IMG/VR virus record: IMGVR_UViG_2636415673_000004
Location: 1-48,566 of that record
Source: a virus
Lineage: Duplodnaviria; Heunggongvirae; Uroviricota; Caudoviricetes
Direction: 5' to 3' (one strand)
DNA length: 48,566 nucleotides
In this document: piece by piece, positions 31,275 through 38,824 of the stretch
Position numbering within the stretch: the stretch's first letter is position 1
How the letters are laid out: every line of letters starts with the position of its first letter
Made by a program: the position numbers and the translations under genes
The notes under the pieces: generated by a model
The model's database searches: none
What the model saw: only the letters and a program-made list of their open reading frames with translations
Told to the model about the DNA's origin: nothing

Positions 31275-31312
31275 CTATTTAAAGCACAAAAACCCGCTCA
31301 TCAGCGGGTTTT
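31275..31312. terminator. Hairpin plus flanking A/T runs; candidate tR' for the late transcript and/or cspF terminator
   Basis: aaaaACCCGCT-catc-AGCGGGTtttctacttttt: GC stem with U-runs on both strands. Confidence 0.5.
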
Positions 31313-32183: not shown

Positions 32184-33179
32184 TTACGCCAGTACGCCTA
32201 TTGCCAGCGCACGATCGATAAAACGAAATATCAGCTCCAGCTGGGAGCCATACTTCTCTTCAAATGCCACGGTATCCGCATGCAGCTCGTCGTGATGCTT
32301 TCTGCACAAAGGCAACACAAAAAGGTCATGCGCTTTTGTACCCATTCCCCCCTGACCGTGGCCTATCAGGTGGTGGGGATCATCAGCAGGTTTTCCACAA
32401 CATGCGCACGGCTGCGTCTTAACCCAGCGCGTGTACTTTTCATTAACCCAGCGGTGACGTTTTGGGCGTAACATAAAAGACTCCGGCGACTCCGGATCCA
32501 CTTTCAGCGCCAGCACCTTTTTCGCCTTATCCTGGATGATGCTGGTGGCAGGAACCGAAGGCACAAGGTCACTTTCCCGGGTAACAGACGGCACAACAGG
32601 CTTCGGTAATCTCAGTGCCTTACGGGCTGCACTTTCCGGTAAGGCATCCGCCAGATCATTACGAATCAGCCACCAGCACAGTTCCGGCATTGTCACAACA
32701 TGACAGTCATCAAAACCGAGATCCCGACGCACAACAGACAACACCCAGCGGGCACAGTTATCCGTTGCCATTGATTCCAGCCGTTCCGTGAACTGATCGC
32801 GCAGCTGGTTATCGCAGTGCCAGCACAGACGGATTGCGCCCGGAGCGTGTCGCATTGTTGTCATGTTCTCGCTGTGCCAGTCGGAATGAGGCCACTGGCA
32901 GCCTTTTTCACGAAGTAACCAGCTTTCAAGACATTCCACGCCACCAGCACGACGGATCACTGCCTCATTGCGGAACACGGCCCGAACGGCAGGATCATCC
33001 GCCAGCGGTTGTGATGCCGCCGGAACGGCACCACTGGCGAAAGATGAATAACGTTCCGGCTCAGGCTCCAGCAGGACACGCCCCTGCATAAACAAGGGCA
33101 TCAGCTCTGAACCTGGTCTGAACAATACGATCCCCATACGCGGGGCAATTTCAGGGGTCAGTAGTGCTCTCACGGTCAC
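32184..33179 (-). CDS. DUF968-family protein with C-terminal HNH-like motif (331 aa), YdfU-like
   Basis: C-terminal CACCGKPADDPHHLIGHGQGG...LCRKHHDELH motif; position between the KilA-N gene and Q. Confidence 0.5.
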   Translation of the reverse strand: MTVRALLTPEIAPRMGIVLFRPGSELMPLFMQGRVLLEPEPERYSSFASGAVPAASQPLADDPAVRAVFRNEAVIRRAGGVECLESWLLREKGCQWPHSDWHSENMTTMRHAPGAIRLCWHCDNQLRDQFTERLESMATDNCARWVLSVVRRDLGFDDCHVVTMPELCWWLIRNDLADALPESAARKALRLPKPVVPSVTRESDLVPSVPATSIIQDKAKKVLALKVDPESPESFMLRPKRHRWVNEKYTRWVKTQPCACCGKPADDPHHLIGHGQGGMGTKAHDLFVLPLCRKHHDELHADTVAFEEKYGSQLELIFRFIDRALAIGVLA

Positions 33180-33180
33180 C

Positions 33181-33996
33181 TCAATGAACGGTATCGAGCA
33201 GCTTTAACAGCTCAGGGAATCGGGATTCGAAGAAATGCGGCTGCGTCTCGCGCGGATTTGCAGGACTGGTGATGTTCTTGCCGAACATGCAGCCTTTCGC
33301 GGTCAGCGACCAGAATTTTTTGATGTTGTTAATCGCGGTACGACTGTATCGTTCGCGTTGTTCAACGATCCCCAGCTTCGCCATCTGGTGATATGCCTGA
33401 TTAGCCGTCAGGCGGATACCATACTGCTTCAGCAGTGCACTCAGCGACAGCGTAGGGCGGCTTGAACCATCTGGCGCATCAGCAGGTGCATCAATGGCAT
33501 AGATCGGCATAAGTTCAGGAAGACCAGCTACCTTTGATAATTTCTGGTATGCACCAAGTTTCGAGGAGTTTGACAGATTTAGAGTCTTCGCTGCTGATTC
33601 AAGCAGAATGACCCCGGATTTAATTTTGTCGGATGTGGTTTCTTCTGGTGATGAATTATGAAGCGCATCAAAAGTACGTATCACTTTTAAGCTGAATGCC
33701 GGGCTGATCCACATTGCATATGCATAGACCAGCTCTTTACAGACATACGTCCCACCATTGCGCCCCTGAATGGTGATGACAGGAATACTACGGGAATCTC
33801 CCGTAGTTTCTTCTTCCAATAATTCCACAAGAGCCTTCGTTTCAGGACGACGCATAAACTCGTGAACTTCCAGCGAACGGGAGGAGCGATTCTCACCAGC
33901 GGCAAGAAGAGCAGCTTTCTGAAGGTCGTTAAGACAGTAGTTAGATTCGAAGTACTGGCGCACAGAAACGCCATCAATTACAAGCAACTGATTCAT
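33181..33996 (-). CDS. KilA-N domain protein (antirepressor-like), about 271 aa
   Basis: N-terminal KilA-N signature (...ITIQGRNGGTYVCKELVYAYAMWISPAFSLKVIRTFD); ATG at 33996 with GGAG 6 nt upstream. Confidence 0.7.
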   Translation of the reverse strand: MNQLLVIDGVSVRQYFESNYCLNDLQKAALLAAGENRSSRSLEVHEFMRRPETKALVELLEEETTGDSRSIPVITIQGRNGGTYVCKELVYAYAMWISPAFSLKVIRTFDALHNSSPEETTSDKIKSGVILLESAAKTLNLSNSSKLGAYQKLSKVAGLPELMPIYAIDAPADAPDGSSRPTLSLSALLKQYGIRLTANQAYHQMAKLGIVEQRERYSRTAINNIKKFWSLTAKGCMFGKNITSPANPRETQPHFFESRFPELLKLLDTVH

Positions 33997-34092
33997 TGGT
34001 TTCTCCACAAATTTTTATCCACGAGCGGGACTGCACTCCCTTTTCGTTGATGCAGGATGAACTTACTGCGATTTTTAATAGTTATCAAGGAT

Positions 34093-34113
34093 ACACTGTT
34101 CATAAATACAGTA
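34093..34113. promoter_or_regulatory. LexA (SOS) box in the promoter region upstream of the KilA-N gene
   Basis: caCTGTtcataaatACAGta: perfect CTGT-N8-ACAG core (34096-34111) with AT-rich spacer, about 16/20 match to TACTGTATATATATACAGTA. Confidence 0.65.
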
Positions 34114-34158
34114 TCTTTAACGAGGTAATACCCAAATTTAGGGTGTTGCTCAATTCCG

Positions 34159-34554
34159 TTACCGAGTTGCTAATTTGCAACTCGCTTTTTCGTACTTACT
34201 GATAGTGATCTCGACCTTCCCCTCCGGGATAACCGGTCCCCACTCCACCAGCATTCTTTTCACCTGACTGTCGTCTTCCCACACCCCCGCGTGGGTCAGG
34301 GCGTCAAACAGCGCCTTGTTATAGTTGTCCAGATCGCGGATCCGGTTATCCGGAGGAAACAACACGATCTCCACTGAAGCAGGTGCCGACGTTGGTTTCG
34401 GCAGACGACGTAACTGCTCAACTATTGCTGCACACGCCGCGCTCTGGAATTTTCGCCCCGCCGCGCTTATCAGGCTCTTACCAGCAAACGCCCCTTTGTT
34501 GGGGTGTCGCCAGTACGTGTTCACGCTGGGCGGAAAAGGCAGGATCAGCTTCAT
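34159..34554 (-). CDS. rusA: RusA-family Holliday-junction resolvase (131 aa)
   Basis: LPFPPSVNTYWRH...RDLDNYNKALFDALTHAGVWEDDSQV has the RusA catalytic-Asp region; ATGA overlap with the upstream gene. Confidence 0.8.
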   Translation of the reverse strand: MKLILPFPPSVNTYWRHPNKGAFAGKSLISAAGRKFQSAACAAIVEQLRRLPKPTSAPASVEIVLFPPDNRIRDLDNYNKALFDALTHAGVWEDDSQVKRMLVEWGPVIPEGKVEITISKYEKASCKLATR

Positions 34555-34877
34555 ACTTTCAGGCCTCTCTCATGTAACCAATGGGCTGCACGCAGCCTGG
34601 CGTTTTCCTCACCGGCAAGCAGTGAGCGGATAATCCCGACCGCCTCGCTGTCGTCGTCCTTCGCCACGGTATGAAGCGTGATCCCCCGGGCCACACCACG
34701 CTTTATCGTGATGACGCCTTTTTTCTCCAGTGCGCGAAGATGCTCCACCGCTGCATTCACTGAACGGTATCCCAGCATGGTTGCCACCTCCAGATTGGTT
34801 GGCGGGAAGCCACGTTCTTTCTGATAAGAAATCAGCATATCCAGCACCTGCTGCTGGCATTGAGTTAACGTCGTCAT
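34551..34877 (-). CDS. LexA-like winged-HTH DNA-binding protein lacking the S24 peptidase domain (108 aa)
   Basis: MTTLTQCQQQVLDMLISYQKERGFPPTNLEVATMLGYRSVNAAVEHLRALEKKGVITIKRGVARGITL aligns with the LexA N-terminal DBD; no Ser/Lys peptidase domain follows. Confidence 0.65.
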   Translation of the reverse strand: MTTLTQCQQQVLDMLISYQKERGFPPTNLEVATMLGYRSVNAAVEHLRALEKKGVITIKRGVARGITLHTVAKDDDSEAVGIIRSLLAGEENARLRAAHWLHERGLKV

Positions 34878-35527
34878 GCCGCCATCTCCCTGACCAGTTT
34901 TTCCGCCTGCTGGCGAACCTGCGCCAGAAACGCCTCACCACATGCCTCAAGTTCATCGCGCCCGATGTAGCTGATTGCCGGTCCCTTCCAGGTCTTGTCG
35001 AAAACAGCAATAGCACCAGCGAAGAAAGCGCCTGTCGGCACCTGCTTCTCATCTTTCGGGATAAACCAGGCAGGCAGTTCAAAACCAATACGCCCGCGAA
35101 TAAAAGCAATATGATCTGCATCTTCCGGCCACCACACTTCGCTGGTGGCAGCTTTGATCAGGAAAACATAGCGCCCGCCTTTATCACGCATGGCACTGGC
35201 ATGTTTCATGATGTAACGCATGCCGGTGATGTATTGCCCCTCATGCTGACTGGCGCGGCTGTATGGGGGATTACCAAAGGCAGCACCTTTAAGCTCCGCA
35301 AGACGTTCTGACCAGTCATGCGCCAGCGCGTTGTCTTCCGCCGTGTAATACGCGGCACATTTGGCGTTATCACCATCGGTAAACAGATCCAGAACAAACG
35401 GGCCAAACAGGGTGTTAATCCCCCAGAAAATGTTATCCGGCGTGCGCCACTGATCGCCCACTTCCTTCAGTTCATGGGCTGGTTTGTTCCGCAGTTCCAC
35501 CAGTGCCTGACAATATTTATTACTCAT
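34874..35527 (-). CDS. Phage-type DNA N6-adenine methyltransferase (about 217 aa)
   Basis: NPPY catalytic motif (GNPPYSR); ATG at 35527 forms a TAATG overlap with the upstream stop (ORF-track frame begins with GTG at 35560). Confidence 0.75.
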   Translation of the reverse strand: MSNKYCQALVELRNKPAHELKEVGDQWRTPDNIFWGINTLFGPFVLDLFTDGDNAKCAAYYTAEDNALAHDWSERLAELKGAAFGNPPYSRASQHEGQYITGMRYIMKHASAMRDKGGRYVFLIKAATSEVWWPEDADHIAFIRGRIGFELPAWFIPKDEKQVPTGAFFAGAIAVFDKTWKGPAISYIGRDELEACGEAFLAQVRQQAEKLVREMAA

Positions 35528-36021
35528 TAAGCCCCCACGTAATTCCCTGACAGATACCACTCTTCACCCGATGCAGCGCGCTTGCTGCTTTTCCGTAAGC
35601 ACCGCTCACGACGCGCCAGAAAATTGTTTCGTTCTGGCTGGGAGTGGCTTTCACGGAATGCCGCCATCCACACGGTTGCAGCACGACGAAATAAGCCCCT
35701 GGACTCCAGTTCTTCAGCCTGGCGGGTCAGGCACAAAATCACCCGGGGATCGTTAGTGCCGACATAGAAATTGCGCACAGGTCTGGTTTCACGAACTGGT
35801 TGTGGTTCCGGCTCCTGCGCTCTCTCAGTCAGGCGCGGGAAATGTCTGCGTGTATCTCCTTCACAACGGTGAGCCACACGCCCGCTCTGACGTAACTTGC
35901 TTGCTGACTGCAGTACGCGCTGCCGTGAGTAACCTGCAAAAGCATCCGCAATGTCTCCGGAAGTACACCCCGGATGGGCTTCAATGAATTTCTGAACGTC
36001 ATTCAAAAGACTCATGCTCAC
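35527..36021 (-). CDS. Hypothetical protein with PerC-like C-terminal region (164 aa)
   Basis: ELESRGLFRRAATVWMAAF...ERNNFLARRERCL resembles the PerC/Pch motif (LExRGLWRRAA); N-terminal half unassigned. Confidence 0.4.
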   Translation of the reverse strand: MSMSLLNDVQKFIEAHPGCTSGDIADAFAGYSRQRVLQSASKLRQSGRVAHRCEGDTRRHFPRLTERAQEPEPQPVRETRPVRNFYVGTNDPRVILCLTRQAEELESRGLFRRAATVWMAAFRESHSQPERNNFLARRERCLRKSSKRAASGEEWYLSGNYVGA

Positions 36022-36959
36022 CCCCTGAATCCTGCCGGGATCTGGCTGTAGTCCACATTGTCGTAACTGGCTTTGAAGTACGGGTCTTCGCGTTTTTCTG
36101 TGTACGTGCTGATGGACGGCGATAAGCGCAGGGAAAGCTCATCCCATTTTTCCCGCAGCTTCGACGGGCTGAGCACGTTACGGCACCAGAACGGATCGCG
36201 GCTGATGCGGCTGTACATCTCGCAGATTTGTTTGTGAGTACGACCATCCTGCACACACATCAGGCGAATTTCGTTTGCCCAGGCTGTCCAGTTCGGTTCT
36301 TTGGGACGAACCACCTCGCCGTCACATTCGGCGGCCTGCTCGTACAGGGCGATGATTTTTTTCCAGAGCCACTGTGCGCAGGTCAAATCATCCTGCGTTC
36401 CCCACTGGCACTTTTTAGGGCTGAATACAACCGCATCAGGATGGCGAGTTAAAAAATCCTGTTCAGCCGTCTGCGTGTCCGGTTGCGAAACGTCCGGACG
36501 AGAAGGTTTTTTATCTGACGGATCATATTTTGATTTTACTGACGGATCCCCGCCAGATTCTGACGGGTGAAAACCCGCTTTTTTGCCAGATTTCGACGCA
36601 TCAAATTTTGACGGGTCAGATTTTGATGCGTCAGATTTTGACGGGTCAGAATCTGACAGTTGAGAAAATGCCGCGGCCTGAAGCTTCGCAACGTTAAGCT
36701 GATAAACATTCGACGCATTACGGTTACCCTGGCGACGCGCCTTACGCGTTAACCAGCCTTCTGCTTCCAGCCGTGCAATAGCCGTTCTGACGGTACTCAT
36801 CCCCGCGCCAATCTGGCGGGCAATGGTTTCAATCGATGGCCAGCACACACCTTCGTCATTACTGAAATCAGCCAGGCGGGCCATAATTGCCACACTGGAT
36901 AATTTCATGCCTGACGCTGCGCAACCATCCCATACATAGCCGGTTAATTTAGTGCTCAT
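36018..36959 (-). CDS. Replication initiation protein (N-terminal HTH, repeat-encoded linker, C-terminal helical domain), 313 aa
   Basis: HTH region (SIETIARQIGAGMSTVRTAIARLEAEGWL); the SDPSKSDASKSDPSKFDASKS linker is encoded by DNA iterons; sits in the O position after cro/cII-like genes. Confidence 0.6.
   Translation of the reverse strand: MSTKLTGYVWDGCAASGMKLSSVAIMARLADFSNDEGVCWPSIETIARQIGAGMSTVRTAIARLEAEGWLTRKARRQGNRNASNVYQLNVAKLQAAAFSQLSDSDPSKSDASKSDPSKFDASKSGKKAGFHPSESGGDPSVKSKYDPSDKKPSRPDVSQPDTQTAEQDFLTRHPDAVVFSPKKCQWGTQDDLTCAQWLWKKIIALYEQAAECDGEVVRPKEPNWTAWANEIRLMCVQDGRTHKQICEMYSRISRDPFWCRNVLSPSKLREKWDELSLRLSPSISTYTEKREDPYFKASYDNVDYSQIPAGFRG
36510..36665. repeat. Iteron array (candidate replication origin) inside the replication gene
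   Basis: About 8 copies of a TGACGG(G/A)T-centred 15-bp unit at 15-24 bp spacing (for example ttttgacgggtcaga twice). Confidence 0.55.
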
Positions 36960-38099: not shown

Positions 38100-38197
38100 A
38101 CGCCCTCCAAAACTAAGTTTTATTAGATGTTAATTATCAATCTATCTTAGGTCAATAAAAACTAAGATTACTTAGTAATTTAAGAAATGGTGCTCCT
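38100..38197. promoter_or_regulatory. Divergent immunity promoter/operator region between cro and cI
   Basis: Perfect 16-bp palindrome ACTAAGATTACTTAGT (38161-38176) plus further ACTAAG/CTTAG half-sites; minus-strand TTGACC, 17 nt, TAACAT as candidate PR. Confidence 0.55.
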
Positions 38198-38824
38198 ATG
38201 GAAACGGTTGGTCAGCGTATAAAAGCTCTGAGAAGGGTTACCAGAACGTCCCAGAAAGAATTGGGTAAATTTTGTGGGGTAAGTGACGTTGCTGTGGGGT
38301 ACTGGGAAAAAGACATCAATGTCCCTGGCGGGGAAGCACTTTCGAAATTAGCGAAGTTCTTTAATACGTCAATAGATTACATTCTTTATGGTGCTGAGTT
38401 TGAAGGCAAACTAGTCACAAACATGCGCAGAGTTCCTGTAATTTCGTGGGTTCAGGCTGGGCAGTTTACTGAGTGCAGGGCAGCAGAAGTGTTTAGTGAA
38501 GTGGACAAGTGGGTAGATACATCTTTAAAGATTGGTGATAACTCATTTGCATTAGAAGTTAAAGGCGACTCCATGACTAATCCTAATGGCCTCCCAACAA
38601 TACCAGAAGGTGCAACAGTGATTGTAGATCCTGATGCAGAACCTCGTCATGGAAAAATAGTCATTGCTCGACTTGATGGAACGAACGAAGCTACAGTAAA
38701 AAAATTAGTCATCGATGGTCCTCAAAAGTTTTTAGTGCCATTAAATCCACGGTATCCCAACATCCCAATCAATGGTAATTGCCTGATCATTGGTGTAGTC
38801 AAAGGAGTTCAATACGAACTCTAG
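38198..38824 (+). CDS. cI: CI-type prophage repressor (HTH-XRE plus S24 LexA-like autopeptidase), 208 aa
   Basis: N-terminal HTH (QKELGKFCGVSDVAVGYWEKD); C-terminal S24 motifs GDSM (Ser) and a downstream Lys (ATVKKL). Confidence 0.85.
   Translation: METVGQRIKALRRVTRTSQKELGKFCGVSDVAVGYWEKDINVPGGEALSKLAKFFNTSIDYILYGAEFEGKLVTNMRRVPVISWVQAGQFTECRAAEVFSEVDKWVDTSLKIGDNSFALEVKGDSMTNPNGLPTIPEGATVIVDPDAEPRHGKIVIARLDGTNEATVKKLVIDGPQKFLVPLNPRYPNIPINGNCLIIGVVKGVQYEL

Follow-up and report, generated by a model that had tools for sequence, protein, structure and literature searches.

A predicted LexA operator at a putative internal promoter ahead of the KilA-N, DUF968 and Q genes in a lambdoid Escherichia coli prophage

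The early-right operon of a lambdoid Escherichia coli prophage (IMG/VR record IMGVR_UViG_2636415673_000004; "the window" is the whole analysed stretch of 48,566 nucleotides) carries a LexA (SOS) box in the 162-bp gap between rusA and a gene for a KilA-N domain protein. At the level of sequence this operator is real and of high quality, and its occupancy by host LexA in vivo is highly probable. We consider it fairly probable that the box serves a LexA-repressed internal promoter, here termed P_kil, giving the KilA-N, DUF968 and Q genes an SOS input besides that of the cleavable CI repressor; that P_kil exists and points towards KilA-N is likely. The features involved are the following.

34094–34113, minus-strand reading TACTGTATTTATGAACAGTG: LexA (SOS) operator 20-mer, heterology index (HI) 7.26
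34060–34088, minus strand: highest-scoring promoter-like element towards KilA-N, TTGATA (34088–34083), 17-bp spacer, TAAGTT (34065–34060), position weight matrix (PWM) score 8.3
34159–34554, minus strand: RusA resolvase gene, whose stop codon borders the gap
33181–33996, minus strand: KilA-N domain protein, 271 aa (Pfam)
32184–33179, minus strand: DUF968/HNH-like protein (Pfam), starting 1 nt past the KilA-N stop codon
31418–32170, minus strand: Q-type antiterminator (Pfam Antiterm), 13 nt past DUF968

The core CTGT-N8-ACAG at 34096–34111 (CTGTTCATAAATACAG) had been described as a near-consensus LexA operator in an initial annotation of this DNA, and scoring bears this out. The 20-mer TACTGTATTTATGAACAGTG agrees with the consensus TACTG(TA)5CAGTA at 16 of 20 positions, and at 17 of 20 in the variant found in Shigella phage SfIV. 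The bare CTGT-N8-ACAG pattern is not significant (two occurrences in the window against 0.6 expected, with 11 of 100 shuffles reaching two), and the pattern-level test was therefore replaced by an HI analysis, using a matrix rebuilt by regression from 140 published pairs of sequence and HI (PSOSP Table S1, PMC12527982; root mean square 2e-5). Matrix scoring of the box, a check that the initial annotation had proposed, gives an HI of 7.26 in this form; the second-best site in the window scores 14.55, and the box is the only one below 14.5. By chance, an HI of 7.26 or less is expected 0.003 times per window and 0.28 times per 4.64 Mb, and it was reached by 5 of 2000 dinucleotide shuffles. In the PSOSP table for E. 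coli K-12 the LexA-binding class extends up to HI 13.6, and its authors claim 100% agreement for 24 tested sites (PMC12527982). The box falls within this binding class of E. coli SOS boxes, as does the variant shared by SfIV and E. coli AZ187, which has an A at its end and scores 4.93. It has the same 20-bp palindromic motif as the chromosomal boxes and an HI in their range, but differs from them in lying inside a prophage operon and in its unusual predicted position near −50. HI values of 4.31, 6.40, 6.98, 4.65 and 2.77 are tabulated for five chromosomal box sequences (PMC12527982). The rebuilt matrix returns 4.31 for the 20-mer TACTGTATGAGCATACAGTA. The five tabulated values are presumably, in that order, those of recA, lexA, uvrA, sulA and umuDC (Fernandez de Henestrosa et al. 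2000).

On the minus strand the operon reads cro, a cII-like gene, a replication gene, PerC, Dam, a gene whose product has LexA_DNA_bind as its only domain, RusA, the 162-bp gap, KilA-N, DUF968 and Q. The gap is the only sizeable one between cro and Q, since the genes from the replication gene to rusA all overlap and KilA-N, DUF968 and Q are spaced by 1 and 13 nt; the initial annotation had rightly seen that it stands alone but placed it at 34009–34158, whereas it runs from 33997 to 34158. The KilA-N gene starts with the ATG at 33996, preceded by GGAG and in agreement with RefSeq (coding sequence of 816 nt), and the 20-mer lies 98–117 bp upstream of this codon; the distance of "about 90 bp" given earlier was roughly right for a box edge 98–100 bp away. 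Pfam upholds the earlier assignments of KilA-N, DUF968, Q and a CI repressor with an S24 domain, and the KilA-N–DUF968–Q block proposed downstream of the box is indeed contiguous. No convincing terminator was found on the minus strand from the gap to Q, which makes read-through into Q plausible.

We propose that the box acts as a host LexA operator at P_kil, whose likeliest form is TTGATA-17-TAAGTT, starting transcription near 34053. In lysogens, and in infected cells without DNA damage, LexA would lie on or beside P_kil, leaving read-through from PR as the only source of KilA-N, DUF968 and Q. Damage to the DNA would relieve P_kil through RecA-stimulated cleavage of LexA, and the promoter would then supply an SOS-dependent input to KilA-N and, through read-through, to DUF968 and Q, independently of both CI cleavage and transcription across the early operon of about 4 kb. 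If P_kil is under LexA control, the prophages of this widespread family would sense SOS twice over, through self-cleavage of CI and through LexA acting on a block that contains the late-gene antiterminator Q, and together these inputs would affect how fast, and at what level of damage, the late genes are switched on.

Comparison with other loci supports a link between LexA boxes and the position of the KilA-N gene. The order Dam–(LexA-like)–RusA–KilA-N–DUF968–Q is common across Enterobacterales. A set of 160 loci encoding relatives of the N-terminal domain of the KilA-N protein was assembled (80 from genomes and 80 from IMG/VR contigs), 122 of them without the mosaic cassette that holds the box in the window and is described further below. 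Seven of these 122 loci have a box of HI ≤ 13 lying about 80–170 bp upstream of the KilA-N start, where about 0.1–0.3 would be expected:

L075, Citrobacter: HI 8.53
L053, Edwardsiella: HI 8.5
L016, Rosenbergiella: HI 12.2
L023, Pantoea: HI 12.55
L147, viral contig: HI 7.55
L126, viral contig: HI 10.2
L155, viral contig: HI 12.2

In the genome set, four box sites fall in the 32 kb of upstream sequence and five in the other 430 kb. The flanks of the boxes in the window and in the Citrobacter locus L075 cannot be aligned, and their 20-mers are identical only at positions 2–6, 11 and 15–18; nine of the shared positions are the LexA-critical half-site bases. On this evidence, and that of the Edwardsiella-type phages described below, a LexA box at the junction between RusA and the regulator gene is a recurrent yet optional design, seen in at least seven further prophage lineages of enterobacteria.

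The same loci inform the placement of the promoter. With TTGATA-17-TAAGTT as P_kil, the box would be centred at −50.5 and lie 5 bp upstream of the −35 element. This register (box, 4–6 bp, −35, 17 bp, −10, with the centre at −50) is common to the window, L075 and L155, the promoter-like element being ATGCAA-17-TAAAAT in L075 and GTGACA-17-TATATT, a strong match with a score of 11.8, in L155. The box encloses the −35 element (GTTACA) in Pantoea-type loci and shares bases with the −10 element (TACAAT) in those of the Edwardsiella type; across the box-bearing loci the box centre stands at −20, −30 or −50 relative to the predicted start. Of 11 loci with a box, 10 have a higher-scoring promoter-like element towards the regulator gene than on the opposite strand; this favours a promoter in that orientation and suggests one for the window too. 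An alternative element in the gap would place the box at +6 to +25; it has no counterpart in L075 or L155, because the rusA stop codon there abuts the box.

34125–34153, minus strand: alternative promoter-like element, TTGAGC, 17-bp spacer, TATTAC, score 6.8, about background

Several observations weigh against LexA control of the block. The best PWM score in the gap, 8.3, reaches only about the 80th percentile of the background (best score per 226 bp: median 6.4, 90th percentile 9.1), and a simple sigma-70 scan of 33800–34400 found no promoter on either strand. The predicted box centre lies upstream of the −35 element rather than in the classical overlapping position, and repression from a site near −50 would be less certain than from an overlapping one. 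The closest relatives of the N-terminal domain in other genera (L005, 75%; L007, 70%; L121 and L122, 83%) have gaps without a box, so that LexA control would be optional for the KilA-N gene. Copies of the cassette are nearly identical, which means that conservation within E. coli tells little; footprinting within the species was set aside as uninformative for this near-clonality. Read-through into Q may also be limited, because SOS-driven Q before CI cleavage would risk premature lysis. Finally, a passage in one report on ssb promoters, which carry an SOS box, frames its regulatory role as unresolved (PMC9505508).

Most of these points would also fit a box that is bound by LexA without regulatory effect in its present place, having come with the cassette from a donor whose core promoter it overlapped. 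The weak promoter prediction with a box upstream of −35, the recent and nearly clonal spread of the cassette, the absence of LexA control from the closest N-domain relatives and from mEp460-type phages, and the ssb precedent are all compatible with such a passenger. We nevertheless judge it improbable: three diverged lineages share the −50 register, and in one of them the promoter is strong; the sole substitution seen in the 20-mer (G to A at position 20) betters the match to the consensus; and boxes at the RusA|regulator junction far exceed chance.

Relatives of the mEp460 type are 97% identical to the window up to about 34186, within the last rusA codons; there the match breaks, and it resumes at about 80% identity from about 33770, inside the KilA-N gene. 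In mEp460, SfV, SfII and Stx2a_1447-type phages the cassette is absent and rusA and KilA-N are spaced by 19 bp.

33770–34183, minus strand: mosaic cassette of about 415 bp, the edge at 33770 being approximate

It contains the last rusA codons, two dyads, the LexA box, the promoter-like elements, a leader and the N-terminal KilA-N domain, the first ~75 codons of the KilA-N gene lying within it. Box, putative promoter and N-terminal domain move jointly as this cassette, which took the place of a gap-less rusA–kilA junction and neatly illustrates how mosaic recombination can swap a regulatory input in and out. Of 5426 complete E. coli genomes, about 2300 contain sequence matches to the LexA-like/RusA module, but just 186 have the gap, in every case between RusA and KilA-N. 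The box is kept in every cassette copy seen, including a variant with an 11-bp deletion closer to the ATG, and the G-to-A change at position 20 is the only one within the 20-mer. Over 33900–34900 the window shares 100% identity with E. coli LSC52, 99.3% with phage PhiR49_1 and 98.7% with Shigella phage SfIV; members of the prophage family include SfIV and prophages in O104:H4, O157, O111 and O103 strains (pathogenic E. coli and Shigella).

Two genes upstream of KilA-N, and overlooked by the initial annotation, is a gene for a truncated LexA homologue, which is an obvious second candidate ligand of the box.

34551–34877, minus strand: phage LexA homologue, 108 aa, with PF01726 LexA_DNA_bind (Pfam, 1e-18) as its only domain and no S24 domain

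The protein carries the database annotation "LexA family" and is 43% identical to residues 1–86 of E. coli LexA. Of the five helix-III residues that contact DNA (list from PMC3091678), four are retained (S39, N41, A42 and E45), and the fifth, E44, is a V here. The protein stops short of the S24 domain and hence lacks Ser119 and Lys156. An AlphaFold2 (AF2) model (predicted local distance difference test score, pLDDT, 79) shows the LexA winged helix, a flexible linker (69–75) and a helical hairpin (75–87 and 93–103); this C-terminal hairpin is conserved down to 42% identity and may serve dimerisation. Searched against the library, the protein hit 3913 clusters (E ≤ 1e-3); short proteins that align only with residues 1–70 make up many of the top hits. 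A literature search found no functional study of it, and its only characterised analogue that we found is gp6 of phage GIL01, a truncated LexA homologue that activates the late promoter P3, to which host LexA binds as well (Fornelos et al. 2018, PMC6182141).

The box could accordingly be a target, mainly or in addition, of the phage's own truncated LexA, an explanation that is compatible with host LexA control and that we rank first among the rivals, as possible though doubtful. Synthesised from PR upon induction or infection, and uncleavable, this protein would occupy the box and the SOS boxes of the host anew when no host LexA is left; P_kil would then fire in a pulse, or be modulated in the manner of gp6 at P3. 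Besides the domain assignment, the four kept contact residues and a hairpin that could allow dimerisation, it is favoured by the box being the sole CTGT/ACAG inverted pair, at any spacing, that stands out in the phage, by the presence of the LexA-like gene in 36 of 38 IMG/VR cassette loci, and by the GIL01 precedent of a truncated LexA homologue binding at a late promoter. The distribution speaks against it: the box is found in just 186 of the ~2300 E. coli genomes that match the LexA-like/RusA module; gene-bearing phages without the cassette have no LexA box within about 3 kb; and many gene-bearing loci lack a box before KilA-N. Conversely, two cassette loci, L090 and L093, have the box without the phage LexA-like gene, which makes host LexA the common denominator. 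Strict coupling of box and gene was rejected on these grounds. Further points against a role of the phage protein are the E44-to-V change, the occurrence of 72-aa forms without any dimerisation element, and a box centre at −50.5, which is not a classical activator position. Other spacings of CTGT/ACAG half-sites (0–20) showed no enrichment across the window, giving no sign of a hidden operator set for the phage LexA homologue.

A further argument for involvement of the phage protein comes from Edwardsiella-type prophages, added through a search with the 72-aa LexA N-terminal domain (LexA-NTD) protein of L053, in which such a gene lies inside the box-controlled operon. Two kinds were found: one with RusA, a box (HI 8.5), KilA-N, LexA-NTD, DUF968 and Q, and another with RusA, a box (HI 4.3–6.7), a Rha-type regulator, LexA-NTD and DUF968.

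L053, 1232–1450; L165–L170 and L172–L174, 2501–2716: 72-aa LexA-NTD gene, between the KilA-N or Rha-type regulator gene and DUF968

The LexA mimic in these phages would itself be SOS-controlled, because its gene is downstream of a good box (HI 4.3–8.5) at the RusA junction. A tentative and rather unlikely proposal is that of a two-LexA circuit in lambdoid prophages of enterobacteria, in which host LexA holds an internal promoter before a KilA-N or Rha regulator, DUF968 and Q, and an uncleavable LexA DNA-binding domain, encoded by the phage next to or inside the operon, takes over the operator and the host SOS boxes after cleavage. Such a circuit, if true, would give the regulator and Q as a timed pulse and would let the phage shut off the SOS regulon of its host while it grows lytically. 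A phage LexA homologue occupying SOS boxes would be a tool for overriding the host DNA-damage response and a Gram-negative counterpart of GIL01 gp6. It is mainly this uncharacterised protein nearby that raises the interest of the locus; the scanning of prophage promoters for LexA boxes already exists (PSOSP), and the general idea is not new. A literature search returned nothing specific on this box, on KilA-N under LexA control or on the LexA-like protein of SfV/mEp460-type phages.

The far upstream part of the gap and the adjoining rusA end contain two dyads, which bear on a different explanation.

34163–34184: dyad 1, CGAGTTGC-TAATTT-GCAACTCG, within the final rusA codons, followed by a T-run on the plus strand only
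34124–34150: dyad 2, a palindrome with a 10-bp stem around AAATTTA, pairing better as plus-strand RNA (three G-U pairs)

Dyad 1 begins at the left breakpoint of the cassette. On the plus strand, 34114–34195 forms two hairpins followed by a U-run, with a fold of −27.7 kcal/mol and z = −5.05, which could be an antisense small RNA or chance. The box might then control a short plus-strand RNA running from about 34114–34124 to a terminator at 34163–34192, antisense to the 3' end of rusA and to the most upstream part of the gap. The fold would fit such an RNA, as would the overlap of the box with the −10-like plus-strand hexamers TACAGT and TATCTT and the two C-to-T changes of AZ187, which preserve plus-strand pairing in dyad 2. 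We hold it to be very improbable, given that plus-strand promoter scores are poor (at most 5.7), Rfam has no match in 33800–34400, terminator-like plus-strand hairpins are common inside the minus-strand genes (six between 33787 and 36577), AZ187 has an uncompensated change in the terminator stem (dyad 1), L075 and L155 leave no room for the RNA as rusA abuts the box, and 10 of 11 loci have the weaker promoter on the opposite strand.

Between the predicted P_kil and the KilA-N gene, a further structured element was found in the leader, 25–50 nt upstream of the KilA-N ATG.

34021–34047, minus strand: leader hairpin, ACGAaaaGGGA-gTGCAG-TCCCgcTCGT

A hairpin with the invariant loop (N)TGCAG stands upstream of KilA-N genes in many lineages (L006–L164), whether a LexA box is present or absent, and its position in phages of the mEp460 type overlaps the stop codon of rusA. 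Among 34 distinct sequences, at least four closing pairs are formed in 85%, versus 14% of shuffled controls, and the 21 different inner stems amount to compensatory changes. The hairpin is not a terminator, and the Rfam search of 33800–34400 gave no match to it either.

The likely beneficiary of P_kil, the KilA-N protein, had been called antirepressor-like. What was found is a KilA-N domain at residues 10–114 with a match to PHROG 129, "transcriptional regulator"; the C-terminal half has no match in Pfam (E ≤ 10), NCBIfam or PDB sequences. In the AF2 model (pLDDT 77) the N-terminal KilA-N domain is followed by a helical linker and a C-terminal domain of winged-helix-like appearance, and the best Foldseek match of the model in the PDB has E = 0.27. 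None of these searches supports an antirepressor; such an activity is unlikely, and a DNA-binding regulator is the more likely function. The C-terminal domain (about 145 aa, 33181–33650, belonging to no Pfam family) is elsewhere joined to N-terminal domains of the Rha (PF09669) or AntA (PF08346) type, for example in Klebsiella phage SopranoGao, a pattern that reads as domain shuffling among phage DNA-binding regulators.

The initial annotation had likened the locus to the LexA-controlled induction of 186- and Gifsy-type phages. Phage 186 has a repressor without a self-cleavage domain. The same is true of the Gifsy repressors, where LexA is the SOS sensor (PMC3121763). In the closest known system, the experimentally established SOS locus of Salmonella Gifsy-1, -2 and -3, a LexA box 1.3 kb downstream of the replication genes, after terminator-like palindromes, drives dinI, an antirepressor gene (gfoA/gftA/gfhA) and irsA (Lemire et al. 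2011, PMC3121763). The layout of that locus is indeed echoed here, with a box outside the immunity region and downstream of the replication genes, palindromes before it and a small operon upstream of the late region. The resemblance does not extend to a non-cleavable repressor, as CI here has Peptidase_S24 and LexA would not be the sole SOS sensor. The payload differs as well, consisting of the 271-aa KilA-N protein, DUF968 and Q instead of dinI and a small antirepressor, and the box adjoins the predicted core promoter without overlapping it.

Other LexA-controlled antirepressors are Tum of 186 and AntC of N15 (cited in PMC3121763), and in P1 a LexA site overlaps the coi promoter (PMC4713147). 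In all three systems host LexA represses a phage gene that promotes the lytic switch, to which the predicted role of the box may be likened; the KilA-N protein is set apart from Tum, AntC and Coi by family and fold searches, which gave no antirepressor match. Compared with LexA-controlled antirepressor systems, the present type of locus has a truncated LexA gene nearby and sometimes a Rha regulator or a LexA-NTD gene in the payload. GIL01 is similar in being a temperate phage with a truncated LexA homologue, in essence a DNA-binding domain, and with LexA boxes, which in its case lie at the promoter for late functions. It is, however, a Bacillus tectivirus without a CI-type repressor, and gp6 activates from its own site overlapping the −35 element; the protein encoded here belongs to an E. 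coli phage, has an extra helical hairpin, and occurs mostly in phages without a box.

The remaining genes considered here are the following.

38198–38824, plus strand: CI-type repressor with HTH_3 and Peptidase_S24 (Pfam, S24 1e-27)
36018–36959, minus strand: replication gene
35527–36021, minus strand: PerC-family transcriptional activator, within the early operon
34874–35560, minus strand: Dam

With an S24-type CI, the phage has its own RecA-sensitive switch. In the immunity region (38110–38190) the operators are apparently ACTAAG-N4-CTTAGT palindromes flanking a PR-like promoter, TTGACC-17-TAACAT (38155–38127). CI operators in the rusA–kilA gap were considered and rejected, the immunity operators (ACTAAG...CTTAGT) being unrelated to the gap dyads. 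About 100 bp past Q, a symmetric strong hairpin, AAAACCCGCTCATCAGCGGGTTTT (31289–31312), is flanked on both sides by A- and T-runs and looks like a terminator through which Q reads. The PerC gene (35527–36021) belongs to the family of the prophage-borne PerC/Pch virulence regulators of pathogenic E. coli.

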